Assembly (NCBI RefSeq): GCF_003334305.1 | Contig: NZ_QOWS01000003.1 | Strand: one strand, 5' to 3' | DNA length: 64,000 nucleotides | Source of the DNA: Escherichia coli | GTDB lineage: Bacteria; Pseudomonadota; Gammaproteobacteria; Enterobacterales; Enterobacteriaceae | Shown here: positions 1-50,433 of the stretch, in pieces | Position numbering within the stretch: position 1 is the stretch's first letter | Layout of the letters: each line of letters starts with the position of its first letter | Made by a program: the position numbers and the translations under genes | The notes under the pieces: model-generated | The model's database searches: none | Told to the model about the DNA's origin: nothing | The model's input: the letters and a program-made list of their open reading frames with translations, nothing else

Positions 1-698
1 ACGCCATCGGCATCCATTGGCGCAACGAACATCAGTGCGAAGTCCGGGTTTTCGCCCATTACTTGTGCCGAGCCGAAGCCAATCATGTTGTAGTGAGTCA
101 GCGCCGAGTTGGTGGCAACCACTTTCGCACCGCTAACGATAATCCCGGCGTCAGTCTCTTTTTCCAGCTTGATGTAAACGTCTTTCACTTTATCGGTCGG
201 CAAATGACGATCGATCGGTGGGTTAACAATCGCGTGGTTAAAGTAGAGGCCAGTTTCCTGAATACGGGTGTACCAGTTACGGGCGTTCTGCTCGAACTGA
301 CCGTAAAAGCCCGGATTCGCGCCCAGTGCGCAACCGAAAGCAGCTTTGTAGTCTGGGGTACGGCCCATCCAGCCATAGCTCAGGCGTGACCATTCAGCGA
401 TGGCGTCGCGTTGCTGGCGCAGGTCGTCGGCACTTTTCGCCACGCGGAAGAATTTATGGGTATAGCCGCCGCTGCCGGTGTCGGTGTTCCAACACAGAGA
501 GTCCTGCATCTCCGGTTTGTGCAGCGCGTCGTACAGTTGGGCAACAGACGCTGCCGCATTACGAAATGCCGGATGAGTGGTGACGTCTTTCACTCGCTCG
601 CCATAGATATAGATCTCGCGACCATCCTGCAGGCTTTTCAGATACTCTTCCCCGGTGAAAGGACGTTGGGTACTGGCGCGGAAATCTTCTGGTTTCAT
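1..698 (-). CDS. hpaB: 4-hydroxyphenylacetate 3-monooxygenase, oxygenase component (partial; N-terminal about 232 codons, gene continues beyond window start)
   Basis: Minus-strand translation from ATG at 698 gives MKPEDFRASTQRPFTGEEYLKSLQDGREIYIYGERVKD..., matching HpaB from memory; open to position 1; absent from ORF track because truncated by window edge. Confidence 0.85.
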   Translation of the reverse strand, partial: MKPEDFRASTQRPFTGEEYLKSLQDGREIYIYGERVKDVTTHPAFRNAAASVAQLYDALHKPEMQDSLCWNTDTGSGGYTHKFFRVAKSADDLRQQRDAIAEWSRLSYGWMGRTPDYKAAFGCALGANPGFYGQFEQNARNWYTRIQETGLYFNHAIVNPPIDRHLPTDKVKDVYIKLEKETDAGIIVSGAKVVATNSALTHYNMIGFGSAQVMGENPDFALMFVAPMDADG

Positions 699-948
699 GT
701 CGACCTCTACAGTATTAATCGGAATACGATTGTTAATTTTGTGTGTTGTTTTTGTTATTTAATTGAAGCTTGCAGGGGCGATTACGGGAAGACACTTTTG
801 GGACAATGGCTGGTACTTTTCAGGTCGGGTACGGTTTTGTGATCGAGGTCGCTTTTAGCGATTTTTAACGTTACTAAATCCCCTTGCTCCAGGCGGAGAA
901 AGGGGAATAGCAGGTGGTGCCTGGTTTCCCGTTAAGGCTAAGGGATTT

Positions 949-1839
949 TCACGTCACAGGTACTTTTTTGGCACGATAAGCACTGGGCGAGCAACCGACT
1001 AAGCGATTAAAAAAGCGCGCAAAATAAGCCGGATCTTTAAAACCGAGTTGCCAGGCAATATTGTTCACGGCGTTATCAGAAAACAGCAGCAGCCGCTTGG
1101 CTTCTCGTAGCTGCCTGTCGAAAATCAACCGTTTTGGCGGACGGTTGGCAAAGCGGCGGCAGATGTCCGTGAGTCGTGATTCGGTGATATGCAGTTCGTT
1201 AGCGTAATCCGGTACTGTCCAGTGCTGATGAAAATGGCTTTCAATCAGCATATTAAAACGCTGGAACAGTTTTAATTCTCCGCGCATCCCGCTGGCGGCA
1301 TGGTCGTCGAGTTTTGCATTACGCAGCAGTAGGGTGAACACTGCCTGTGCCAGTAGCGTCAGGGTGTGTTCCCGTCCAGGCAGTTGTTCCACCGATTCCC
1401 GCTCTATCAGTTGCCAATAGTGTTCCAGCGCCGCCAGTTCGTCGGGTTTATCTGCCAGTGACAGGCAAATCCCCGGCAGGCCGAAGGTTTCCCGAGTGCC
1501 TGGATAAAGAACTTCCAGCAGGGGCCAGATCAGATCTTCCCGTACCGTCAACACATGACCGTCGGCGTCAGACTCCGTAATAAACGCATGAGGTACTGAC
1601 GGTGGCGTCAGGACAAACAGGGGCGCTTCCACCGAGTAGCGATGATCGTCAAGCTGTAGCTCAATCTGTCCGCTATTGAGGAAATGCATCTGAAAGTACT
1701 GTTCGTGGCGATGTGGCAGCATATGGCGGCCAAAAAAGGCCGCCATGCGGGCGAACGACTGATAATGCACATCGTCCGTGCCCAGGCTTTCATCGTACTC
1801 TTTGCTGATATCAATATTGGCAATCTGACGGTCACACAT
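949..1839 (-). CDS. hpaA: AraC/XylS-family transcriptional activator of hpaBC
   Basis: 296-aa ORF; C-terminal AraC-type HTH (…ANELHITESRLTDICRRF…); position between hpaX and hpaB as in described hpa clusters. Confidence 0.85.
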   Translation of the reverse strand: MCDRQIANIDISKEYDESLGTDDVHYQSFARMAAFFGRHMLPHRHEQYFQMHFLNSGQIELQLDDHRYSVEAPLFVLTPPSVPHAFITESDADGHVLTVREDLIWPLLEVLYPGTRETFGLPGICLSLADKPDELAALEHYWQLIERESVEQLPGREHTLTLLAQAVFTLLLRNAKLDDHAASGMRGELKLFQRFNMLIESHFHQHWTVPDYANELHITESRLTDICRRFANRPPKRLIFDRQLREAKRLLLFSDNAVNNIAWQLGFKDPAYFARFFNRLVGCSPSAYRAKKVPVT

Positions 1840-1848
1840 CGTCGTTCC

Positions 1849-3225
1849 TTACGGGGTCGCTCGCGGACGGGAGGACTGCATTGGAATCGCCCAGATAATC
1901 CCCGCACCAATCACCAGCAGCGCGGCAACAAACCACAATCCACTGTTAAAGCTGCCGGTCAGATCTTTCAACCAGCCGATCATAAACGGACTTAACGCTG
2001 AACCAATGTTGCCAGTGGCGTTGATCACCGCAATACCGATCGCTCGTGCCCGCAGGCTGATGGACTGATCCGGTGTTGTCCAGAAAATCGCCATTGCGCT
2101 GAATGATCCGGTCGAAGCCATAATGATCCCCAGCATCTGGATCATGTTGTGATCAGTTGCCGAAGCCAGTAACCAACCTGCGGCAGCGAACAAATAAGGA
2201 AGGGCGGTGTGATGCCTTCGTTCCTGGCGGCGATCTGAGTGACGGCTCCAGTAGACCATCCCGAGAATGGTACAAATCTGCGGTACGGCGGCCAGCAGGC
2301 CGATGGTGATATTACTGCTGCCCTGATTAAAACTTTGCAGGATCTGCGGTGTCCAGATGCTGATCGCACTAAGTGTGTTGGTCAGGCAGAAATACGCCAG
2401 GGTATACATCATCACCACCGGAGTGAAGATCTCCCGCCACATACTGCGTTGTTGCATGGCGTGGTGGCTGATGGCTCCCTCTGGCTGAACCAGCGTCAGA
2501 CGATCGTTATCCATCATCTCTTGCAGGCATTTTTTGTCTTCTTTCGTCAGCCACTTAGCTTTGTCCGGTGAGTCATCAAGCCAGAACCACACCATGACGC
2601 CGAGTAATACCGACGGGAAGCCTTCCAGCAAAAACAGCCACTGCCAGCCTTTTAATGCCATTACGCCATCCAGCGACAAAATGTAGCCGGAAACGAGCGA
2701 TCCCAACGCTGTCGTTACCGGCATTGCAACCATAAACAAGGCGTTGGCACGGGCGCGGAAATAGGCCGGAAACCAGAAGGTTAAATACAGCAGAATGCCA
2801 GGCAGAAAGCCGGCTTCGGTAATGCCAACCAGTATACGCAGTACGTACAAGCTGGTGGGGCCAGTGGCAAACATGGTGGCAGTAGAGGCGATGCCCCAGA
2901 GCACCATGATGGTGGCGATCCAGCGCCGCGCACCGACAATACTCAGCATAATGTTGCTGGGAATGCCGAAGATGACATAAGCGGCATAGAACAGGGTGGT
3001 AGCGAGGCCAAACATGGTGGCGCTCAGACCGAGGTCGCGTCCCATCGTGAGTCCGGCAAAGCCGATGTTGATGCGATCAAGGAACGAGAAGATAAACAGC
3101 ACGAACAGAAAGACGATCAGGCGGCGAAATAGCTTCTTAATAACCGCCTGTTGTCCGGCAGTCAGCGCTTTATGCTGATTCGCCGGATCGATACTCTCCG
3201 GTATGGCAGGTGAGGTGTCGCTCAT
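1849..3225 (-). CDS. hpaX: 4-hydroxyphenylacetate permease, MFS transporter
   Basis: Multi-helix hydrophobic ORF; internal ATG at 3225 (MSDTSPAIPE…) gives about 458 aa with GAGGAAG ribosome-binding site upstream; ORF-track start is an upstream in-frame extension. Confidence 0.8.
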   Translation of the reverse strand: MSDTSPAIPESIDPANQHKALTAGQQAVIKKLFRRLIVFLFVLFIFSFLDRINIGFAGLTMGRDLGLSATMFGLATTLFYAAYVIFGIPSNIMLSIVGARRWIATIMVLWGIASTATMFATGPTSLYVLRILVGITEAGFLPGILLYLTFWFPAYFRARANALFMVAMPVTTALGSLVSGYILSLDGVMALKGWQWLFLLEGFPSVLLGVMVWFWLDDSPDKAKWLTKEDKKCLQEMMDNDRLTLVQPEGAISHHAMQQRSMWREIFTPVVMMYTLAYFCLTNTLSAISIWTPQILQSFNQGSSNITIGLLAAVPQICTILGMVYWSRHSDRRQERRHHTALPYLFAAAGWLLASATDHNMIQMLGIIMASTGSFSAMAIFWTTPDQSISLRARAIGIAVINATGNIGSALSPFMIGWLKDLTGSFNSGLWFVAALLVIGAGIIWAIPMQSSRPRATP

Positions 3226-3267
3226 TTTTCTTCCTCTAATGGGATTTTTGTAGGGTACGACAAGGTT

Positions 3268-3399
<132 letters not shown>

Positions 3400-3400
<1 letters not shown>

Positions 3401-4188
3401 TAATACACGCCGGGCTTCACGGCGGTGGCCTGCGCACCAAACCGTGCTGCCAGCGCTTCAGCGGCGCGGGCGAGCAGGGTGGTGTCAACGCCGACGGCGA
3501 CAAACAGCGCGCCCAGTTCCAGATAGCGTTTTGCCAGTTGCTCATTGGCGATCAGGATCCCCGGCGCTTTGCCCGCTTCGCGGATCTGCACGATCGCCTG
3601 CTCAATGGCGGCCTGTACTTCCGGGTGCTGCGGATTACCGGCATAACCCATATCGGCGCTCAGATCCGCCGGGCCGATAAACACGCCGTCGACCCCTTCC
3701 ACGTCCAGAATCTGCGGTAAGTTCTTCATTGCCTCACGCGTTTCGATCTGCACCAGCACGCACATTTGATCGTTGGCTTTTTGCAGGTAATCAGGAATGC
3801 GATTCCAGCGCGAGGCACGGGCCAGCGCACTGCCCACACCGCGAATACCGGCGGGGGGATAACGGGTGGCGCGTACCGCTTCACGGGCTTCGTCAGCGTT
3901 TTGAACCATCGGCACCAGTAAGGTTTGTGTGCCGACGTCCAGCAGTTGTTTGATTTGCACCGGATCGTTCCACGACGGACGTACTACCGGCTGGCTGGGG
4001 TAGGGCGCAATCGCCTGTAGCTGGGTGAGCACGGTTTGCACGTTATTCGGCGCGTGCTCACCGTCGATCAATAACCAGTCGAATCCTGCTCCGGCCAGTA
4101 ACTCTGCGCTGTAGCTGCTACTTAGCCCCAGCCATAATCCGATCTGCGGGCGGCCTGCTTTCAGCGCCGCTTTAAAACTGTTTTCCAT
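3400..4188 (-). CDS. hpaI: 2,4-dihydroxyhept-2-ene-1,7-dioate aldolase
   Basis: ATG at 4188 ([19 protein letters not shown]…) gives 262 aa; ORF-track start at 4329 is an upstream extension overlapping hpaH. Confidence 0.85.
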
Positions 4189-4198
4189 CGTTCTCTCC

Positions 4199-5002
4199 TT
4201 AAACAAAGCGGCAGCTAATGGAGCCCATGTTGCCGTAATCGACGTGGAAGGTGTCGCCCTTACGCGCCGGAACCGGGCGGGTGAACGAACCGCCGAGAAT
4301 GATTTGCCCGGCTTCCAGTTGTACGTCATACGGTGCGAGTTTGTTCGCCAGCCAGGCCACGCCGTTTGCCGGATGATTTAGCACGCCAGCGGCGACGCCG
4401 GTTTCTTCAATCACGCCATTGCGATACATCAGGGCGGAGATCCAACGCAGATCCAGTTCGTCTGGTTTGATCGGACGACCGCCGAGGATCACTCCGGCGT
4501 TGGCGGCGTTATCAGAAATGGTGTCGAACACTTTGCGCGGGCGCTGGGTTTCCGGATCGATGTTGTGGCAGCGAGCGTCGATCAGCTCCAGCGCCGGGAT
4601 CACGTAGTCCGTGGCGTTGTAGACGTCGAACAGCGTGCAGTTTGGCCCACGCAGCGGTTTTGCCAGCACGAAAGCCAGCTCCACTTCAATGCGCGGCACG
4701 ATAAAGCGATCGGTCGGGATATCGCTGCCATCGTGGAAGAACATGTCGTCCAGCAATGCACCGTAATCTGGTTCGCTGATTTGTGAGCTGGCCTGCATCG
4801 CTTTCGAGGTCAGACCGATTTTGTGGCCTTTCAGCGTACGGCCTTCGGCGATTTTCAGTCGAACCCATTCACGCTGCACCGCGTAAGCGTCTTCGATGGT
4901 GATCTCCGGGTAATCCAGGGAGATCGCGCGGATCTGTTCGCGCTGTTTTTCTGCCTGATCCAGACGCTGGGCGATCAGGGTGTGGGTGTGTTTATCGAAC
5001 AT
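4199..5002 (-). CDS. hpaH: 2-oxo-hept-3-ene-1,7-dioate hydratase
   Basis: 267 aa from [16 protein letters not shown]…; fumarylacetoacetate-hydrolase-like sequence; position in hpa operon. Confidence 0.85.
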
Positions 5003-5021
5003 AGCGATATCCTGTGGCATT

Positions 5022-5052
5022 GCCGGATGCGGCTGCGCCTTATCATCCGGCC
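5022..5052. repeat. REP-like palindromic unit inside the hpa operon
   Basis: GCCGGATGCGGCTGCGCCTTATCATCCGGCC between hpaF stop and hpaH start. Confidence 0.5.
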
Positions 5053-5069
5053 TGGAAGCTGGTGCAAAT

Positions 5070-5450
5070 TTATTTAAACAACGCGTGCACGTTGTTTTGT
5101 TTAAAATTCAGCGTCGGGTGCAGCTCTGCAATCTCAAATGAAAGCGCCAGGTAACGGCTCTCCATCAGTGAGGCGAAGTGCGTTTTAATCAGATCAAACA
5201 GCATTTCGCCCACTTCCTGACGGCTTTCCAGGCTGCGCCCGCTGCCGATTTTTAGCGTCATATGCACAAAGGCGTAATCGTGCTTGCCATCAGCCATTTG
5301 CCAGGTATCGATCCAGTGCGCCCGGCTACGTATTCCCCCAAGCGGAAAAATCCCCGTCGCCGCCAGTGCAGTGTTAACACTGGCAAACAGCTCAGGTAAG
5401 CGGGCTTCTTGACGAATATTTTCAGTACATTCCACGATAAAGTGCGGCAT
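5070..5450 (-). CDS. hpaF: 5-carboxymethyl-2-hydroxymuconate isomerase
   Basis: 126-aa [25 protein letters not shown]…. Confidence 0.85.
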
Positions 5451-5459
5451 GGTGGTTCC

Positions 5460-6311
5460 TTACGCGGGAAGCGGGAAAACAGCGTTAACCTGACCGGTGC
5501 CAGAGCTTGGGAATAGCTCGGTGATAAACTCCACCTTGCCGTCGTATTTATCCCAGCCGAGCATCCCCAGCAGCATCACCGTGTCGTGCATATTGCCTTC
5601 GCCGTAGCAGTAGTCGGCGTACTCCGGCAGCATATTGCAGAACTCTTTGAACTGGCCTTCGCGCCACAACTTCACCACGCGCTCGTCCATCTGGCGGTCG
5701 AACTCGCGGGTGTAGCTGTTCATCCCTTCTTCTGCACGCTGATCGTCAATAAAGCGGTGCGATAACGAACCGCTGGCAAGGACCGCCACGGTGCCGTCGT
5801 ACTGTTCGATCGCTTTCAGAATCGCTTCGCCCAGCTTGCGGCTGTCGGCAAAATCGTGAACCGTGCAGAAAGCCGAAATGGAGACCACTTTGAAGCGCTT
5901 GTCTTCATTCATGTAGCGCATCGGTACCAGCGTGCCGTATTCCAGTTTCAGGCTGGGAATGTTGTGCGCTTTTGCCCGCACGCCGAGCTTTAAGGCTTCA
6001 TCGGCAATTAGCTGCCCCAACTCCGGGTTGCCCTCGTAGTTGTAGGTCATGTCACGAATAAAATGCGGCAGCTCGTTGCTGGTGTAGACGCCTTCAAAAT
6101 GGTCTGCACAGTTGATGTGATAAGCACTGTTGACCAGCCAGTGGGTATCGAAAACGATAATGGTATCGACGCCCATTTCCCGGCAACGCTTGCTGATCTC
6201 TTTATGCCCGTCGATCGCACCCTGGCGGCAACCGTGGTTTTTCCCTGGCAGTTCAGAGAGATACATCGACGGTACGTGCGTGATCTTGGCGGCTAACGCT
6301 AACTTACCCAT
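5460..6311 (-). CDS. hpaD: 3,4-dihydroxyphenylacetate 2,3-dioxygenase (extradiol)
   Basis: 283-aa ORF; operon position. Confidence 0.85.
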   Translation of the reverse strand: MGKLALAAKITHVPSMYLSELPGKNHGCRQGAIDGHKEISKRCREMGVDTIIVFDTHWLVNSAYHINCADHFEGVYTSNELPHFIRDMTYNYEGNPELGQLIADEALKLGVRAKAHNIPSLKLEYGTLVPMRYMNEDKRFKVVSISAFCTVHDFADSRKLGEAILKAIEQYDGTVAVLASGSLSHRFIDDQRAEEGMNSYTREFDRQMDERVVKLWREGQFKEFCNMLPEYADYCYGEGNMHDTVMLLGMLGWDKYDGKVEFITELFPSSGTGQVNAVFPLPA

Positions 6312-6312
6312 A

Positions 6313-7779
6313 TCAGACTCCCCATTTCGGAATTGGATGGTCGCCCATGGAAATGCAGACGTTCTTCATTTCCGCGAACACTTCGAAGCTGTACTCACCG
6401 CCTTCACGTCCGGTGCCGGAGGCTTTTACGCCGCCAAACGGCTGGCGCAGGTCGCGGACGTTCTGGGTGTTGACGAACACCATGCCTGCTTCAATGCCAC
6501 GCGCCAGGCGTAACACTTTGCTGACATCCTGTGTCCAGATGTACGACGCGAGGCCGTACTCCACGTCGTTTGCCAGGCGTAAGCCTTCGGCTTCGTCTTT
6601 AAACGGCAGCAGGCAGGCGACCGGCCCGAAAATCTCTTCCTGGGCGACGCGCATACGGTTATCAACGTCTGCCAGCACCGTTGGGCGCAGGAAGTTGCCG
6701 CCTTTCAGGTGTGCAGGCAGGTCAGACGGTTTATCCGGGCCGCCCGCCAGCAGGGTTGCGCCTTCTTCAATGCCGAGACGGATATAGCCGGAGACTTTTT
6801 CCCAGTGTTGCTGGCTGATAAGCGCCCCAACCTGGGTATTTGGATCGTTCGGATCGCCCACGCGCAGACGGTTGGCGCGTTCGGCAAAGCGTTTAACGAA
6901 TTCCGGGTAGATGCTCTGCTGAATAAAGATGCGCGAACCGGCGGTGCAGCGTTCGCCGTTGATCGAGAAGATGGTGAACAGGGCGGCGTCCAGCGCGCGT
7001 TCAATATCAGCATCTTCAAAAATCAGCACCGGCGATTTACCGCCCAGTTCCATGGAGTATTTTTTCAGCCCGGCGTTTTTCATGATGTTGCGCCCGGTGG
7101 CGGTACCGCCGGTGAACGACACGGCACGCACGTCATGATGACGAACCAGCGCATCCCCTGCGGTTGCGCCGTAGCCCTGTACCACGTTCAGCACGCCTGC
7201 CGGAATACCGGCTTCCAGCGCCAGCTCACCCAGGCGGTCAGCGGTCAGCGGGGAGAGTTCCGACATCTTCAGCACCGCGGTATTGCCCAGCGCCAGACAC
7301 GGCGCGACCTTCCAGGTGGCGGTCATAAACGGCACGTTCCACGGCGATACCAGCGCACAAACGCCCACCGGCTGCACCAGCGTGTAGTTGAGCATCTTGT
7401 CGTCAACCGGATAGGTCTTGCCGTTCATCTGCTGGCAGACTTCCGCGAAAAATTCAAAGTTGTGAGAAGCGCGTGGGATCAACACATTTTTGGTCTGATG
7501 GATCGGCAGGCCCGTGTCCGCGGTTTCCATCGCGGCGATCTCCGGTACGTTCTGGTCGATCAGATCGCCCAGACGGCGCATCAGGCGCGCGCGCTCTTTC
7601 ATCGGCAGATTGGCCCATTTCGGGAACGCCTCTTTCGCTGCCGCTACCGCCTGATTGATCTCCGCTTCACCGCCGGAGGCCACATCCGCCAGCACTTCAC
7701 CCGTTGCCGGATTGGTAGTCTGGAAGTAGTCGTTACCTGCAACATTTTTACCGTTGATCCAATGATTTACTTTTTTCAT
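6313..7779 (-). CDS. hpaE: 5-carboxymethyl-2-hydroxymuconate semialdehyde dehydrogenase
   Basis: 488-aa ORF with aldehyde dehydrogenase hallmarks (…FTGGTATGRNIM…ELGGKSP…). Confidence 0.9.
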   Translation of the reverse strand: MKKVNHWINGKNVAGNDYFQTTNPATGEVLADVASGGEAEINQAVAAAKEAFPKWANLPMKERARLMRRLGDLIDQNVPEIAAMETADTGLPIHQTKNVLIPRASHNFEFFAEVCQQMNGKTYPVDDKMLNYTLVQPVGVCALVSPWNVPFMTATWKVAPCLALGNTAVLKMSELSPLTADRLGELALEAGIPAGVLNVVQGYGATAGDALVRHHDVRAVSFTGGTATGRNIMKNAGLKKYSMELGGKSPVLIFEDADIERALDAALFTIFSINGERCTAGSRIFIQQSIYPEFVKRFAERANRLRVGDPNDPNTQVGALISQQHWEKVSGYIRLGIEEGATLLAGGPDKPSDLPAHLKGGNFLRPTVLADVDNRMRVAQEEIFGPVACLLPFKDEAEGLRLANDVEYGLASYIWTQDVSKVLRLARGIEAGMVFVNTQNVRDLRQPFGGVKASGTGREGGEYSFEVFAEMKNVCISMGDHPIPKWGV

Positions 7780-9065
7780 TTCGCTGTTTCCTCACTCACA
7801 ATTCGGTTCACCAGGCGGCCCACGCCTTCTACTTCCACCACCACTTCATCGCCAGGCACCACGTCAGATAAGCCTTTTGGTGTGCCGGTGGCGATCATGT
7901 CGCCCGGATTCAGGGTCATAAATTCGCTTAAGTAGGCGATCAGGAAGGGCACGCTGAAGATCAGATCGGCGGTGGTGCCTTGCTGGCGTAACTCGCCGTT
8001 GACGAAGGTGCGAAGGGTCAGATTATGCGGGTCCGGGATCGCCTCTTTCGGCACGATGGTTGAAAGCATCGGCGTCAGTCCGTCGCGGCTTTTGACCCGC
8101 AGGTTAGGGCGGTAGTAGTTTTCCAGATAGTCGCGAATGGCGTAGTCGTTACACACGGTGTAGCCCGCGACATAATCCATGGCATCGGCTTCGCTGACGT
8201 TACGCGCCTGTTTGCCAATAACTACCACCAGCTCCGCTTCATAGTGCATGTATTCAATATTGTTTGGACGCACGGAGGTCTGGTTATCGCCAGTGAGGGT
8301 ATTTGGCGCTTTCAGGAACACCAGCGGTTCTTCCGGTGGCTTAAATTCCAGTTCGCTGGCGTGGTCGGCGTAGTTCAGGCCGAGGGCAAACAGCGTGCCG
8401 TGCGGGTGTGGCTGCGTTGGGAAGCTCTTGCGCGTGGTCACTTCACGTTCGTCCACTACCGGATTTTCCAGCGGCGGGAAACCTTCTGCGAGAACACGAA
8501 CGCGATCGCCTGGCTGTATTTCCACGCGCGCCTGTGGCGTGCCGAGCAGAATGGCATCGCCTGGATTCAGTGTGGCAAATTCGCTCAGGGCGCTCAGCAA
8601 CTGCGCGGCGTTACGTTGTAAATCGGCGGTATTCCAGTGATCGGCAGGACGCCCGTTGATCTCGGTATAGATGGTCAGATTATCGACATTGCTGAGAGCC
8701 ACGGTTTCGCCAATGGGGCAGAATCCATCACGACATTTTGCTTTGATTGCCGGGCGGTAAAAGCTCTCTTCCGGCAGGCTGACGTCGTTAGCCAGCGCAT
8801 ATCCGGCGATGTACTCTGCCGCATCTTCTTCACGTACTTTCGTCGCCGTTTTTCCCACAATCAGCGCAACAGTCGCACCGCTCAGTACCTTTTCACCCTG
8901 TGGAAAGGGAATCGGTTCACCGCAACCAATCACCGTATTGCGCGGTTTAATAAACCAGACCGCAGTTTTAGGCGGGGCTTTGTAGGGGGATTGCTGGAAC
9001 GCTTCCTGCCATGCATCAAGTTGGCTGCGATGGTTCAACGCTACGGCGAAGATAGTGCCTTTCAT
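7776..9065 (-). CDS. hpaG: bifunctional isomerase/decarboxylase of the homoprotocatechuate pathway
   Basis: 429 aa from MKGTIFAVALNH…; duplicated FAH-like halves; 4-nt overlap with hpaE. Confidence 0.85.
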   Translation of the reverse strand: MKGTIFAVALNHRSQLDAWQEAFQQSPYKAPPKTAVWFIKPRNTVIGCGEPIPFPQGEKVLSGATVALIVGKTATKVREEDAAEYIAGYALANDVSLPEESFYRPAIKAKCRDGFCPIGETVALSNVDNLTIYTEINGRPADHWNTADLQRNAAQLLSALSEFATLNPGDAILLGTPQARVEIQPGDRVRVLAEGFPPLENPVVDEREVTTRKSFPTQPHPHGTLFALGLNYADHASELEFKPPEEPLVFLKAPNTLTGDNQTSVRPNNIEYMHYEAELVVVIGKQARNVSEADAMDYVAGYTVCNDYAIRDYLENYYRPNLRVKSRDGLTPMLSTIVPKEAIPDPHNLTLRTFVNGELRQQGTTADLIFSVPFLIAYLSEFMTLNPGDMIATGTPKGLSDVVPGDEVVVEVEGVGRLVNRIVSEETAK

Positions 9066-9090
9066 TACCACTCCTCGGATTCGATCATTT

Positions 9091-9114
9091 TAATCATTAA
9101 TATGTTAATGATTA
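9091..9114. promoter_or_regulatory. Inverted repeat in hpaG leader; candidate HpaR operator
   Basis: TAATCATTAA-tatg-TTAATGATTA perfect 10-bp arms, 26 bp upstream of hpaG start in the divergent hpaG/hpaR region. Confidence 0.45.
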
Positions 9115-9336
9115 CTTTTATTCCCGATTGCGTAGTTTGGCAAAAGTAAGTGATGTAAATGTGATCTAATTAACAAACTATTTACATTTAAAGATAATAA
9201 AATATTAAATATCAGCAAGTTAACAAAACATGCTCAATTTTGATAAAATGAAGAATTGCAGGGGCAGCGCAGTCCCGGTAACGTGATGATTAACTGTTTC
9301 TATATTAATGATTTTGAATTTTTCAGGGGAAAGATA

Positions 9337-9783
9337 ATGCACGACTCTCTAACCATTGCGTTGCTCCAGGCGCGAGAAGCGGCGATGAGTTATTTTCGCC
9401 CAATCGTTAAACGGCATAATTTGACTGAGCAACAGTGGCGCATCGTGCGTATTCTGGCGGAAAGCCCATCAATGGATTTTCACGATCTGGCGTATCGCGC
9501 CTGCATTTTGCGCCCAAGCCTGACCGGGATCCTTACGCGGATGGAACGCGACGGTTTAGTGTTGCGATTAAAGCCGATCAATGATCAGCGGAAGCTCTAT
9601 ATCTCGCTAACCAAAGAGGGGCAGGCGCTGTATAACCGCGCTCAGACACAGATTGAAGAAGCCTATCGGCAGATTGAAGCTCAGTTTACTGCCGAGAAAA
9701 TGCAACAGTTAACCCATCTGTTAGAGGAATTTATTGCTCTGGGCAATTCCCGACAAGAAGACATCCCGGGCGATAATGAATAA
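9337..9783 (+). CDS. hpaR: MarR-family repressor of the hpa meta-cleavage operon
   Basis: 148 aa from MHDSLTIALLQAREAAMSYF…; GGGGAAAG ribosome-binding site; divergent from hpaG. Confidence 0.8.
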   Translation: MHDSLTIALLQAREAAMSYFRPIVKRHNLTEQQWRIVRILAESPSMDFHDLAYRACILRPSLTGILTRMERDGLVLRLKPINDQRKLYISLTKEGQALYNRAQTQIEEAYRQIEAQFTAEKMQQLTHLLEEFIALGNSRQEDIPGDNE

Positions 9784-9844
9784 CTTTTTAGTATCTGATA
9801 ACCAGCGCCTGGTTTTTCCATGGATGGCGGGTTACACCTTTTCA

Positions 9845-9871
9845 TAAAGTTTTTGCTTTCCAGGCCGAAAA
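9845..9871 (+). promoter_or_regulatory. Sigma-28 (FliA) type promoter for tsr
   Basis: TAAAGTTT-N11-GCCGAAAA matches the class-3 flagellar promoter consensus TAAAGTTT-N11-GCCGATAA, about 30 bp upstream of tsr ATG. Confidence 0.6.
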
Positions 9872-9901
9872 TCTTGCATCGGTCCACAGGAAAGAGAAAC
9901 C

Positions 9902-11566
9902 ATGTTAAAACGTATCAAGATCGTGACCAGCTTACTGCTGGTTTTGGCTGTTTTTGGCCTTTTACAACTGACATCAGGCGGTCTGTTCTTTAATGCCTTA
10001 AAGAATGACAAAGAAAATTTCACTGTTTTACAAACCATTCGCCAGCAGCAATCCACGCTGAATGGCAGCTGGGTCGCGTTGTTGCAGACGCGTAACACCC
10101 TCAACCGCGCGGGTATCCGCTACATGATGGATCAGAATAATATTGGTAGCGGTTCAACCGTTGCTGAGCTGATGCAGAGTGCCAGTATTTCGCTGAAACA
10201 GGCGGAAAAAAACTGGGCGGATTACGAAGCGTTGCCGCGTGACCCGCGTCAGAGCACCGCCGCAGCGGCAGAGATCAAACGTAATTACGATATTTATCAC
10301 AATGCGCTGGCGGAGCTGATCCAACTATTAGGGGCAGGCAAAATCAACGAGTTCTTTGATCAGCCGACCCAGGGATATCAGGACGGTTTCGAGAAGCAGT
10401 ATGTGGCTTACATGGAGCAAAACGATCGGCTCTATGATATCGCCGTCAGCGATAACAATGCCTCCTACAGCCAGGCTATGTGGATTCTGGTGGGCGTGAT
10501 GATCGTCGTACTGGCGGTCATCTTCGCCGTCTGGTTCGGTATTAAAGCCTCGCTGGTAGCGCCAATGAATCGCCTGATTGACAGCATTCGTCATATTGCA
10601 GGCGGCGATCTGGTGAAACCGATTGAGGTGGATGGCTCTAATGAGATGGGGCAACTGGCAGAGAGTTTGCGCCATATGCAGGGAGAGCTGATGCGTACCG
10701 TCGGTGATGTGCGCAACGGGGCCAATGCCATCTATAGCGGTGCCAGCGAAATCGCCACCGGCAATAACGATCTCTCTTCGCGCACCGAGCAACAGGCCGC
10801 TTCGCTGGAAGAGACGGCAGCCAGCATGGAGCAACTGACCGCAACGGTGAAGCAGAACGCCGAAAATGCGCGCCAGGCCAGCCATCTGGCGTTAAGTGCT
10901 TCTGAAACGGCGCAACGCGGCGGCAAAGTGGTGGATAACGTGGTGCAGACTATGCGCGATATCTCCACCAGTTCGCAGAAAATCGCCGATATTATCAGCG
11001 TAATTGACGGCATTGCCTTCCAGACCAATATTCTGGCTTTGAACGCGGCGGTTGAGGCTGCGCGTGCGGGTGAGCAAGGGCGCGGTTTTGCGGTGGTTGC
11101 GGGAGAAGTGCGTAATCTGGCCCAGCGTAGCGCCCAGGCGGCTCGTGAAATTAAAAGCCTGATTGAAGACTCGGTGGGGAAAGTGGATGTTGGCTCTACG
11201 CTGGTCGAAAGCGCCGGGGAAACAATGGCGGAGATTGTCAGTGCTGTGACCCGCGTGACGGACATTATGGGCGAAATAGCTTCTGCTTCTGATGAGCAGA
11301 GCCGTGGTATCGATCAGGTTGGCTTAGCGGTTGCTGAGATGGACCGGGTAACTCAACAGAACGCCGCGCTGGTGGAAGAATCTGCCGCCGCCGCCGCCGC
11401 GCTGGAAGAGCAGGCCAGTCGCCTGACCGAAGCTGTGGCAGTGTTCCGGATTCAGCAACAGCAGCAACAGCAGCGTGAAACATCGGCTGTGGTAAAAACC
11501 GTGACGCCAGCTACGCCGCGTAAAATGGCAGTGGCAGATAGCGGGGAGAACTGGGAAACGTTTTAA
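9902..11566 (+). CDS. tsr: methyl-accepting chemotaxis protein I (serine chemoreceptor)
   Basis: 554-aa ORF; HAMP and MCP signalling domains; C-terminal NWETF pentapeptide. Confidence 0.95.
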
Positions 11567-11577
11567 TCGCCATAAAA

Positions 11578-11607
11578 ATGCCCGATAAGCAAAATGTTAT
11601 CGGGCAT
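11578..11607. terminator. Hairpin between convergent tsr and lgoT
   Basis: ATGCCCGATAA…TTATCGGGCAT inverted repeat between the two stop codons. Confidence 0.55.
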
Positions 11608-11614
11608 AGGGAGA

Positions 11615-12976
11615 TTAATCTTTACGTGGGTCGTTGATCGGCTGACGAACCAGGAAGATGTACGCCAGTGCCCCCGCTGCGGTGACGCAACCGCAGATGA
11701 TTAGTGCCAGACGGAATGAGTGGGTGGTATCAACAATAAAACCAGTAATGATCGGCGCAAAAGAGGCGCAGATGAAGCTGGCAAAGTTCTGGATACTGCC
11801 CACCGACGCAGTCATGCGAGAAGCAACTGCGACGTGGATCAAGCCCCAGCAGGATGTTCCGGCAAAGTGAATACAGAACAGTGCCATGCCAATCAGCAGA
11901 ACCGCTGTCATGGATGTTGTCGCTTGCGGTACGACCAGCGTAAAGGCGGCAGAACAGAACATCCCGGCAATAATGCAGATCTTACGGCTTTTAATCGGAG
12001 CCATTCCCCCTTTGACCAGCCAGTCAGTAACGTAACCGTTGACCAGCATCCCGGCAGCCCCAAACAGGAAAGGGATAGCCGCCATCAACCCTGTGCTTTT
12101 TAAATCCAGGTTATAGGCTGTTTGCAGGTAACCAGGAAGCCAGGCCAGATACAGCCACGCAGTGTAGTTGATGCCACTGAATCCGAGCATCATTCCCCAC
12201 ATTGTGCGGTTACGGAACAGGCTGCGCCATTCGGCAAAACTGAGCGGATCTCGGCGGGCATTGACGCTACCTGCATTGAGATAAGCTTGTTCAACGGCAG
12301 TCAGTTCTACGTGCTCGCGGTTGCGATAGAGCATATACCAGCCAATGGCGAGAAAAATCCCCAGCACACCAATGGTAATAAACATCCCACGCCAGCCCAT
12401 CACCAGCATCATCGCCGCCAGAATCGGTGGGCTTACGGCAACGCCAATGGTAGAAGCTGCGTTGAAGAAGCCCATCGGGCGTCCGCGCTCTTTGATGTTG
12501 AACCAGTCGTTAATGACTTTTACGCCACATGGGTTCATCGGCGCTTCACCAATCCCCATACCGATACGCACCAACACGAACTGCGTAAAGCTGTGCACCA
12601 TGCCAGACATGGCCTGGAACAGTGACCAGAAGAACATCCCCAGTCCCAGCATCAGGCGTGGGCCTTTACGATCCAATAGTGGGCCGCAAGGAAGTTGCGC
12701 AATCCCGTAAGCGAGTGAAAACACGGAGAGCAAAGCGCCGATTTCGGTGGCACTTAATCCCAATTCTTCACGAATCGTTAAATTTGCTACCGACAGCGAA
12801 CTGCGGTCGAGATAATTGATTACCGCCGCAAAAAATAATAACAACATGGCGGTGGTTTGAATGCGTTTAATTCGGGTACTGCGTTGAACTAATCCATCTG
12901 GTGGCACGGGAATATCTGCCGACGAAGATGGAGTAAATGAAGAACGCGGATCGAGGGTGATATTTTCTTTTTCCAC
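11615..12976 (-). CDS. lgoT: L-galactonate:H+ symporter (MFS)
   Basis: 453-aa MFS ORF matching YjjL/LgoT from memory. Confidence 0.9.
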   Translation of the reverse strand: MEKENITLDPRSSFTPSSSADIPVPPDGLVQRSTRIKRIQTTAMLLLFFAAVINYLDRSSLSVANLTIREELGLSATEIGALLSVFSLAYGIAQLPCGPLLDRKGPRLMLGLGMFFWSLFQAMSGMVHSFTQFVLVRIGMGIGEAPMNPCGVKVINDWFNIKERGRPMGFFNAASTIGVAVSPPILAAMMLVMGWRGMFITIGVLGIFLAIGWYMLYRNREHVELTAVEQAYLNAGSVNARRDPLSFAEWRSLFRNRTMWGMMLGFSGINYTAWLYLAWLPGYLQTAYNLDLKSTGLMAAIPFLFGAAGMLVNGYVTDWLVKGGMAPIKSRKICIIAGMFCSAAFTLVVPQATTSMTAVLLIGMALFCIHFAGTSCWGLIHVAVASRMTASVGSIQNFASFICASFAPIITGFIVDTTHSFRLALIICGCVTAAGALAYIFLVRQPINDPRKD

Positions 12977-13190
12977 GCCGGACTCCTGTATTTATAATTT
13001 TAATTGTTTACGTAATTGTGAATTACGCAAGGTTGACATTAACGGCAGGTTAAAGTTTTAGGACTTTACTACCGCTCACAAAAAAATTTTTAGTCGACTG
13101 ATTGTGAGCATAGGTAAGCGGGAATTTCCCGGTATTTATCTTTTGATAAAACCGTGCACCCGCTAATAGTTTGCTGTTTTTAATCCGTAC

Positions 13191-14105
13191 TTAATGAGCA
13201 TAACGCGTGTTCTCATTAATGGATCGAATCATTGATTGTTTAGCTGAATTCAAATGGTTACGGAGCGCAAGGGTGGCATCAAGGTCACTGCGGCAAATCA
13301 GAGCGCTGAGAATGGTCATATGCTCATCGACGGCAATGATATTGCGCTGTTTAAGATCGCTTTCGTCCCATTGATAGTGAAAATGAAAGATGACTGAGAT
13401 GATCTCAAGCGATTGATCAAAAAAGATATTGTCGGCAGCTGAAAGCAGTAAGGAGTGAAAATCTCTGTCAAGTTGCGAGAACATGCGAAAGCTATTGCCG
13501 ATGTTGTCACGCAGTAGCCGATGACGTTCGAGCATGGTTTTCGCCTGCAGCCAGCGGGGATCATGATCAGGCAGGTTGAGAAAGTGCTGAAGTGAATGTG
13601 TTTCGAGCATTTCGCGTAGCTCAAACAGCTGCTCGGCGTAGGATTGATCGAATTGCTTCATGCTCCACTGGCCGCGTTTTTCGCTTTGAATAAGATTATA
13701 ACGGCCGAATTTTAAAAGATATTCTCTTACAACCACCGGGCTGACACCCGCGGCCCGAGCCAGTTGCAGTTCAGAAAAAGTTTCCCCAGGGCGTAACTGA
13801 CGCTGGTTTATCATCGTGAAAAAAGCCTGCTCAAACACTTTGTTTTGTTCACTCATTGAAGCGGTAGTACAGGCGAAACCGTCATCATGGTCAGGTTTAC
13901 GCGCAATAACATAGTCGTTTCCAACCTGCGTTAAGACGCCGCATTCGCGTAAGTGGCTGAGAATATGACGCACTGTTGTGCGGCTGATGTTGTACATTTC
14001 CGCCAGCGCACTTTGCGATGGAAGTGGGGAAGGGATATGACCCCGCGCCATATCATCAATGACCTGGTTAATCACATTGTGGCGTAAATTTTGTGAACGA
14101 CTCAT
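13191..14105 (-). CDS. lgoR: regulator of L-galactonate operon (GntR/FadR-like)
   Basis: 304-aa ORF with N-terminal winged HTH (…ALAEMYNISRTTVRHILSHL…). Confidence 0.9.
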   Translation of the reverse strand: MSRSQNLRHNVINQVIDDMARGHIPSPLPSQSALAEMYNISRTTVRHILSHLRECGVLTQVGNDYVIARKPDHDDGFACTTASMSEQNKVFEQAFFTMINQRQLRPGETFSELQLARAAGVSPVVVREYLLKFGRYNLIQSEKRGQWSMKQFDQSYAEQLFELREMLETHSLQHFLNLPDHDPRWLQAKTMLERHRLLRDNIGNSFRMFSQLDRDFHSLLLSAADNIFFDQSLEIISVIFHFHYQWDESDLKQRNIIAVDEHMTILSALICRSDLDATLALRNHLNSAKQSMIRSINENTRYAH

Positions 14106-24335: not shown

Positions 24336-24422
24336 TGGTGCGAGGGGGGGGACTTGAACCCCCACGTCCGTAAGGACACTAACACCTGAAGCTAGCGCGT
24401 CTACCAATTCCGCCACCTTCGC
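24336..24422 (-). tRNA. leuV: tRNA-Leu (anticodon CAG)
   Basis: Reverse complement reads GCGAAGGTGGCGGAATTGGTAGACGCGCTAGCTTCAGGTGTTAGTGTCCTTACGGACGTGGGGGTTCAAGTCCCCCCCCTCGCACCA, 87 nt with long variable arm and encoded CCA. Confidence 0.92.
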
Positions 24423-24547: not shown

Positions 24548-24710
<163 letters not shown>

Positions 24711-32321: not shown

Positions 32322-32430
32322 CCCTTCGTAGGCAGCATCCGGCAGTCGGCGCATAATGCCTGATGCGACGCTTGTCGCGTCTTATCATGCCTACAGGTTT
32401 GTGCCGAACCGTAGGCCGTATCCGGCATGT
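32322..32430. repeat. BIME: REP units
   Basis: GCCTGATGCGACGCTTGTCGCGTCTTATCATGCCTAC flanked by two CGTAGGC…ATCCGGCA units between yjjV and yjjW. Confidence 0.75.
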
Positions 32431-45419: not shown

Positions 45420-45578
45420 TGTTGTAGGCCGGAAAAGGCGTTCACGCCGTATCCGGCATTCGGTGCTCAATGCCTGATGCGACGCTTACCGCGTCTTATC
45501 AGGCCTGGAGATTCACAACGTATTGAAATTTCTTGGTTTGTAGGCCGGATAAGGCGTTCACGCCGCATCCGGCATTTT
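45420..45578. repeat. BIME: three REP units
   Basis: TGTAGGCCGGAAAAGGCGTTCACGCCGTATCCGGCA, GCCTGATGCGACGCTTACCGCGTCTTATCAGGCC, GTAGGCCGGATAAGGCGTTCACGCCGCATCCGGCA between nadR and ettA. Confidence 0.8.

Positions 45579-49817: not shown

Positions 49818-50433
<616 letters not shown>

Follow-up and report, generated by a model that had tools for sequence, protein, structure and literature searches.

The hpa block beside tsr in Escherichia coli: a probable ancestral segment, variably lost or replaced

Introduction

Some Escherichia coli chromosomes carry a block of catabolic genes directly upstream of the chemoreceptor gene tsr, and K-12 carries none there. Did the block arrive in some lineages, or was it lost from others? 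The question is raised by a 64,000-nucleotide stretch of E. coli DNA (contig NZ_QOWS01000003.1 of assembly GCF_003334305.1; hereafter the window), whose first 9,783 positions hold hpa genes, long known in E. coli as the genes for growth on 3- and 4-hydroxyphenylacetate. An earlier reading of the window, the original prediction, described these genes as an accessory block and thereby implied an insertion into a K-12-like chromosome. We consider it probable that the block is instead ancestral, has been variably lost or replaced, and has spread between strains by homologous recombination. Three observations lead us to favor this account over recent gain and speak against the implied insertion: the K-12 chromosome has filler sequence of its own at the site, Klebsiella holds the cluster at the same position, and the divergence of the hpa genes resembles that of their flanks. 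To call the block an ancestral enterobacterial segment that K-12-like lineages have lost describes it better than to call it an insertion. The cluster itself is ordinary textbook matter, and that strains B, C, and W have it while K-12 does not has been known since the 1990s.

Identity and edges of the block

Positions 1-14000 of the window are 100% identical to E. coli strain A7, isolated from orangutan faeces (NZ_CP028767.1, 648383-662382), and the identity continues beyond 14000 with the sole exception of the tRNA-Leu copies, of which the window has one and A7 has three. Because the sequences are identical, the RefSeq annotation of A7 can be transferred onto the window, and the gene names and coordinates used here are taken from that annotation and converted to window positions. 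Positions 1-9783 are confirmed as the hpa (homoprotocatechuate meta-cleavage) cluster, the classical cluster of E. coli B, C, and W. The annotated genes agree with the long open reading frames (ORFs) called mechanically in this interval, all reading frames in the window are intact, and all nine complete Hpa proteins exceed the curated threshold of the NCBIfam equivalog model specific to each. The window contains ten hpa genes, hpaB partially and nine completely. The eleven given in the original prediction is the gene number of the whole cluster rather than that of the window, the eleventh gene, hpaC, lying ~0.9 kb left of position 1 in A7. With A7 included, the order is hpaC-B-A-X-I-H-F-D-E-G on one strand, with hpaR divergent; left of hpaC, A7 has btsT (annotated as frameshifted), yjiX, yjiA, and the penicillin G acylase gene.

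A blastn search of MG1655 with the whole window returned no match for 1-9840 except repetitive extragenic palindromic (REP) repeats at ~3313-3398, bearing out the statement that K-12 lacks the cluster. Colinear K-12 homology begins at 9841, as both blastn and alignment indicate. The DNA that K-12 lacks therefore does not end with the hpaR stop at 9783, as had been proposed, but runs on through a 57-nt tail (9784-9840, plus strand) to 9840 and stops 4 nt short of the tsr -35 element. The sigma-28 (FliA) promoter of tsr is core sequence outside the block (9845-9871, plus strand), with TAAAGTTT at 9845-9852, an 11-nt spacer, and GCCGAAAA at 9864-9871; tsr itself is annotated in A7 at the equivalent of 9902-11566 (plus strand). 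The distance of 60 bp from the cluster to this promoter was essentially right, since we count 61 nt from the hpaR stop to the -35 element.

The whole block in A7 is ~11.3 kb long (locus L001, 6565-17840) and lies between btsT and tsr. At its left edge, outside the window, common sequence extends from btsT up to a CRP-like palindrome, TGTGAT-N4-ATCACA, directly followed in A7 by a strong hpaC terminator hairpin (z = -3.8). The same limits recur in all alleles of the site: on the left, common sequence stops just after the palindrome, and on the right it resumes 1-4 nt before TAAAGTTT. K-12, O157:H7, and Escherichia sp. E1V33, for instance, all keep the tsr promoter despite otherwise unrelated upstream DNA. 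Each edge can now be placed to a few nucleotides from a promoter element, that of btsT on the left and that of tsr on the right. Their exact coincidence with the CRP-like site of btsT and the -35 element of tsr likely arises because a deletion or replacement reaching farther would destroy the adjoining promoter and be selected against.

Could the junction with tsr be an artefact of assembly, a chimera that does not truly adjoin tsr? The contiguity claimed for the window holds up: hpaR immediately precedes tsr in ~2,071 further complete genomes, and in REL606 as well. This refutes the artefact explanation, to which we give practically no credence.

One further observation concerns the left flank. 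The 5' untranslated region of btsT in A7 (L001, 6229-6358) contains a 130-bp insertion that resembles an enterobacterial repetitive intergenic consensus/intergenic repeat unit (ERIC/IRU) element, with GTGAATCCCCGGGAGCTT as its ERIC/IRU-like core. The btsT-hpaC spacing is likewise 393 bp in the four further hpa+ loci that were measured, WG5, STEC 2013C_3963, A3176, and REL606, consistent with such an insertion there, and the insertion is absent from the K-12, O157, and VTB96959v alleles.

Alleles of the btsT-tsr site

Our survey covered 5,426 complete E. coli genomes and found the btsT-tsr site to be multi-allelic across the species. The hpa allele, scored as at least 80% of the 11.3-kb block, is present in 2,020 genomes (~38% of complete genomes), and other markers give similar figures (hpaF present in 2,072; hpaR adjoining tsr in ~2,071). 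A short spacer of K-12 type occupies the site in 2,752 genomes. A third allele is found in 360 genomes, namely O157:H7, O55:H7, and a few others, and consists of a ~0.8-kb low-GC segment with an orphan 180-aa ORF (strain NE92, L012 9174-9716). This ORF has no match among NCBIfam models and a weak PADLOC match to an orphan methyltransferase (E = 9e-4).

Among named strains, REL606 (E. coli B) has btsT-hpaCBAXIHFDEG-hpaR-tsr at the same site, and the eleven-gene, ~11.1-kb cluster has been described in B, C, and W and as lacking from K-12 (PMC7201708, PMC3032704, PMC3446290). The attribution of the cluster to these three strains was therefore sound, B being seen directly in REL606 and C and W being documented in the literature (PMC3032704, PMC7201708). 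The non-K-12 background proposed for the window is likewise supported, both by the hpa genes and by the left flank of the source-like A7, where the penicillin G acylase gene (pac) adjoins yjiA at the place occupied by mrr and hsdR in K-12 (L001, 226-6213). This replacement of hsd/mrr by pac is the arrangement described for E. coli W (PMC3032704).

Ancestral block or insertion

One case for an old position comes from outside E. coli. In K. pneumoniae the order reads yjiA-yjiX-btsT-(two genes)-hpaCBAXIHFDE-G(split)-hpaR-(D-aminoacylase cluster)-two GNAT genes-lgoT-lgoR-lgoD, so that hpa shares with E. coli its gene order, its upstream neighbors yjiA, yjiX, and btsT, and its downstream neighbors lgoT, lgoR, and lgoD. 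The differences are that hpaG is present as two genes, that two extra genes separate btsT from hpaC, and that hpaR is followed by the D-aminoacylase/RidA/symporter/RpiR cluster and the two GNAT genes, with no tsr. Nucleotide identity between Klebsiella and E. coli is 72-88% for the hpa genes and 75-88% for yjiA, yjiX, btsT, lgoT, lgoR, and lgoD. The same parity holds within the species, where E. coli carriers are 97-99.8% identical in the hpa genes other than hpaF and 98-100% identical in the flanks.

Intermediate relatives fill in the picture. Escherichia SCPM-O-B-8794, which is ~93% identical here (~7% diverged), has hpaE-hpaG-hpaR-tsr. In Escherichia sp. E1V33 the tsr -35 element is immediately preceded by the D-aminoacylase/RidA/symporter/RpiR cluster, which in Klebsiella stands directly downstream of hpaR and which E. 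coli is without. It spans L011 1-9411 in E1V33 and L018 1464-9863 in K. pneumoniae, and comprises genes for an Ldh-family oxidoreductase, an amino-acid deaminase or aldolase, a D-aminoacylase, RidA, a sodium:solute symporter, and an RpiR regulator. Together these arrangements suggest an ancestral order btsT-hpa-(D-aminoacylase cluster)-tsr-lgoT, with the D-aminoacylase cluster lost in E. coli before the losses and replacements of hpa. The common ancestor of Escherichia and Klebsiella would then already have had the block at this position, with later loss or replacement of hpa in many lineages of E. coli, among them those with K-12-like and O157:H7-like alleles.

Against this stands the possibility that hpa arrived by horizontal transfer as a metabolic island, and that an ancestor of the A/B1/C-type lineages received it in a btsT-tsr spacer like that of K-12. 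Its distribution gives the idea some appeal: ~62% of complete genomes are without hpa, and for avian pathogenic strains hpaB is reported from phylogroups A, B1, and C but from neither B2 nor G (PMC12444784). An island would also accommodate a K-12-type allele that is old and has unique sequence, as well as the mildly atypical GC content at third codon positions (GC3) and codon usage of the genes and the related hpa clusters on large plasmids of Erwinia and Pantoea. What counts against it is that the Klebsiella cluster also lies between btsT and lgoT-lgoR-lgoD with a divergence equal to that of its flanks, that within-E. coli divergence of hpa equals that of the flanks, that a ~7% diverged genome shares the hpaR-tsr junction, and that neither edge has an integrase, tRNA, direct repeats, or an insertion sequence. 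We regard such an acquisition as unlikely.

Several points nevertheless weigh against an ancestral block. The K-12-type spacer contains ~88-133 bp of its own filler that is unmatched in hpa+ chromosomes, and this filler is found at ~94% identity in divergent E. coli. Together these observations indicate that the hpa-less allele is old too and no simple deletion product. The outgroup synteny comes from one genus, Klebsiella, and the Klebsiella record used is filed as a plasmid, its content looking chromosomal. Salmonella carries hpa elsewhere on its chromosome. A lone acquisition within part of the species tree would also produce the phylogroup pattern of hpaB. Composition differs as well: GC3 is 0.652 in hpa genes vs 0.590 in core genes (Mann-Whitney p = 0.008), and the pooled codon-usage distance of hpa (0.53) is larger than for any of 500 random pools of core genes from the window (mean 0.27, sd 0.06). 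This atypical GC3 and codon usage could be a trace of foreign origin.

The filler deserves closer attention, since its presence means that neither allele is a simple insertion or deletion of the other. Its origin was sought in the hpa+ locus, the hpaR-tsr spacer, the O157 allele, E1V33, and Klebsiella intergenic regions, with no significant similarity to any of them; the best match, of 10 nt, was equaled by 45 of 1,000 shuffles. A scan of species-representative genomes relied on a degenerate Tsr N-terminus pattern that was too strict and returned two loci. One apparent deletion remnant was also considered and rejected, a degraded hpaR between btsT and tsr in strain BS-04 (84% identity; L005, 6036-6736). 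With 65 gaps in 728 nt, systematic loss of G, homopolymer noise, and flanks at 98-100%, it is probably local assembly noise rather than a genuine pseudogene.

Probable exchange of alleles by homologous recombination

How might an ancestral block come to be distributed so unevenly among close relatives? REL606 (hpa+) and K-12 (hpa-) offer an instructive pair. Over the 19 kb to the right of the site their identity is 99.94%, with 7 of the 10 mismatches in the first ~700 bp of tsr; on the left side, between btsT and hsdR, it is only 98.3%. This contrast between left and right indicates a homologous-recombination tract. On the evidence of these alignments, the predicted tract has its end within tsr and extends leftwards into the region of the restriction genes, and the two alleles, hpa and spacer, were swapped as part of it. 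More generally, alternative alleles of the site would pass between strains through homologous recombination in the flanking core genes. The multi-allelic site, the placing of its edges, the ancestral reading, and the tract that separates B from K-12 are useful for annotation and for work that takes the locus as a strain marker, and leave our understanding otherwise unchanged.

Signs of mobility

The search for mobility features gave a uniform result, in agreement with the original prediction that no integrase, tRNA, or direct-repeat boundary would be recognizable. No integrase or transposase is present among the annotated genes from btsT to tsr or in the flanks in A7, and the ORFs in the block are all accounted for by hpa genes. 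The 30 kb surrounding the block contain no tRNA gene, the nearest tRNA-Leu being 14.5 kb off, and no pair of direct or inverted repeats links both block edges. The composition check that had been proposed gave a mild signal: the codon-usage distance does lie outside the 500 core pools, but the shift is small, overall GC being 0.555 in hpa vs 0.533 in the core.

Records of hpa on E. coli plasmids do not alter this picture. In the 'plasmid' record NZ_AP023206.1, yjiA-yjiX-btsT, tsr, and lgoT-lgoR-lgoD surround hpa, and these chromosomal flanks identify it as a piece of chromosome; two of the three other E. coli 'plasmid' records with hpa are 4.8 Mb and 1.2 Mb long. The block resembles integrase- and tRNA-associated genomic islands in that its presence varies within the species and its composition is mildly atypical, but it differs from them in having no integrase, tRNA target, direct repeats, or mobility genes, and the findings favor vertical inheritance together with homologous recombination. 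It is probably not a mobile island.

Possible coupling of hpa to tsr

The junction invites the question of whether adjacency to tsr has a function, either through read-through from the hpaR promoter into tsr or through changed regulation of tsr by the upstream DNA. The two genes lie on the same strand, 118 nt apart, and between the hpaR stop and the tsr promoter there is no convincing intrinsic terminator: the fold of 9781-9845 is no better than that of shuffled sequence (z = -0.34), and no terminator-like site was called there. Furthermore, Tsr is reported to sense 3,4-dihydroxymandelate (PMC6194112), a close analogue of homoprotocatechuate, the product of HpaBC. The lack of a convincing terminator and this ligand make read-through coupling conceivable. 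Set against it are the complete sigma-28 promoter that tsr keeps in every allele, the ~60% of genomes that have tsr without hpa, and Klebsiella, which has hpa without tsr. A functional adjacency is thus very improbable, and we would give equally little weight to its specific form, in which HpaR-controlled, homoprotocatechuate-responsive transcription might enter tsr and yield sigma-28-independent expression of the chemoreceptor. Were it true, aromatic-acid catabolism would be tied to chemotaxis in ~38% of E. coli genomes.

Genes and regulatory regions of the block

The biochemistry of the pathway is established. HpaX imports 3- or 4-hydroxyphenylacetate, HpaB and HpaC hydroxylate the substrate to homoprotocatechuate, and HpaD opens the ring of this intermediate in extradiol fashion. 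HpaE, HpaF, HpaG, HpaH, and HpaI then convert the ring-cleavage product to pyruvate and succinic semialdehyde, HpaI catalyzing the last step. HpaA activates hpaBC, and HpaR represses hpaGEDFHI via a divergent AT-rich region.

Read from the left of the window, the minus strand begins with the 5' part of hpaB (1-698; codons 1-232 of 520), which matches profile positions 1-231 of TIGR02310 HpaB-2 (E = 1e-148), in keeping with the A7 annotation; it encodes the oxygenase component of 4-hydroxyphenylacetate 3-monooxygenase, and its remaining codons lie left of the window. A 250-nt non-coding gap (699-948, minus strand) separates it from hpaA, and we take this gap to hold a putative HpaA-activated hpaBC promoter on the strength of work on E. 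coli W by Prieto and Garcia. Next on the same strand come hpaA, the AraC/XylS-type activator (949-1839; TIGR02297 equivalog, 390 bits vs a cut-off of 275), and hpaX, a major facilitator superfamily permease for 4-hydroxyphenylacetate (1849-3225; TIGR02332 equivalog, 892 bits vs 615).

Between hpaX and hpaI lies a pair of REP units (3284-3380, no strand assigned; direct-repeat family D4, two 45-nt copies) that folds strongly (z = -6.5). It accounts for the only K-12-matching part of 1-9840, matches every E. coli genome at many places, and is the reason for ~20 extra matches per genome in whole-block searches. The spacer that holds it measures 174 nt, vs 123 nt in REL606.

Beyond the repeats, the minus strand continues with the catabolic genes proper. 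These are hpaI, encoding 4-hydroxy-2-oxoheptanedioate aldolase (3400-4188; TIGR02311 equivalog, 434 bits vs a cut-off of 369); hpaH, 2-oxo-hept-4-ene-1,7-dioate hydratase (4199-5002; TIGR02312 equivalog, 465 bits vs 352); hpaF, 5-carboxymethyl-2-hydroxymuconate isomerase (5070-5450; NF011605 equivalog, 264 bits vs 215); hpaD, the extradiol 3,4-dihydroxyphenylacetate 2,3-dioxygenase (5460-6311; TIGR02298 equivalog, 547 bits vs 316); hpaE, 5-carboxymethyl-2-hydroxymuconate semialdehyde dehydrogenase (6313-7779; TIGR02299 equivalog, 739 bits vs 638); and hpaG, a fused bifunctional isomerase/decarboxylase that is first in the hpaGEDFHI operon (7776-9065; NF011750 equivalog, 979 bits vs 811). On the plus strand, hpaR encodes the MarR-type repressor of this meta-cleavage operon (9337-9783; TIGR02337 HpaR equivalog, 201 bits vs 121).

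Within this series hpaF stands apart. A sharply bounded cassette at 5003-5470, comprising hpaF and the hpaH-hpaF spacer, exists as two alleles ~82% identical to each other, the type of the window in 1,085 genomes and the alternative in 987. Since Klebsiella hpaF is ~80% identical to each of the two, one of them was probably imported from another enterobacterium.

The divergent promoter region between hpaG and hpaR (9066-9336, no strand assigned) is AT-rich, GC falling to 0.43-0.48. It contains a perfect palindrome, AATCATTAA-N4-TTAATGATT, at 9092-9113, a related copy at 9290-9313 (repeat family D17), and promoter-like hexamers on both strands at 9170-9249. We take the two palindromes to be candidate HpaR operators, which may correspond to the published ones. 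In consensus scans of 600-10000, promoters and terminators were called no more often than in shuffled sequence, and the hits serve for description only. A search of Rfam found no known RNA family within 1-9840.

Comparison with known clusters

The closest known counterparts, hpa in E. coli W (ATCC 11105), hpc in E. coli C, and hpa in the B strains REL606 and BL21, agree with the present cluster in gene content, order, and orientation. The cluster of E. coli W was reportedly described by Prieto, Diaz, and Garcia in 1996 and by Diaz et al. in 2001. The window shows nothing essential that differs from the W, C, and B clusters; REL606 shares the btsT (yjiY)-tsr site with the source-like A7, and most genes of other E. 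coli carriers have 97-99.8% nucleotide identity with the hpa genes of the window. The differences are confined to details: the hpaX-hpaI spacer is shorter in REL606, where the window has two REP units, hpaF of the window is one of two common alleles, and btsT is frameshifted in A7. E. coli W shares with A7 the pac gene near yjiA (PMC3032704).

Other differences in the window

The block had been called the only clear accessory block in the window, and it is indeed the only one of more than 0.3 kb that K-12 lacks. The statement does not extend to a replacement at hipH or to a dimorphism at lgoT. Between deoD and lplA, 287 bp of the window (39545-39831) replace the 1.33-kb K-12 toxin-kinase gene hipH (yjjJ); the segment is annotated in A7 as a helix-turn-helix pseudogene with an internal stop. 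The lgoT-lgoR region (11615-14105), immediately to the right of tsr, is dimorphic in the species, and the window has the K-12 form. Some strains (represented by loci L004 and L006) have a three-gene TRAP transporter and a Na+/H+ antiporter in place of lgoT, and in these lgoR is only ~80% and lgoD ~92% identical.

A single tRNA-Leu gene is present at 24339-24422, where A7, REL606, and K-12 have tandem leuV-leuP-leuQ, and the window is here 236 bp shorter than A7. This reduction is either a real collapse by recombination between tandem copies or a collapse in the assembly. Rfam naRNA4 (RF02564) has three matches, all REP-derived, at 24562-24644, 45427-45505, and 49823-49900. Finally, repeat units of ~100 bp between yjjV and yjjW (32332-32421) differ in number, with extra copies in K-12.

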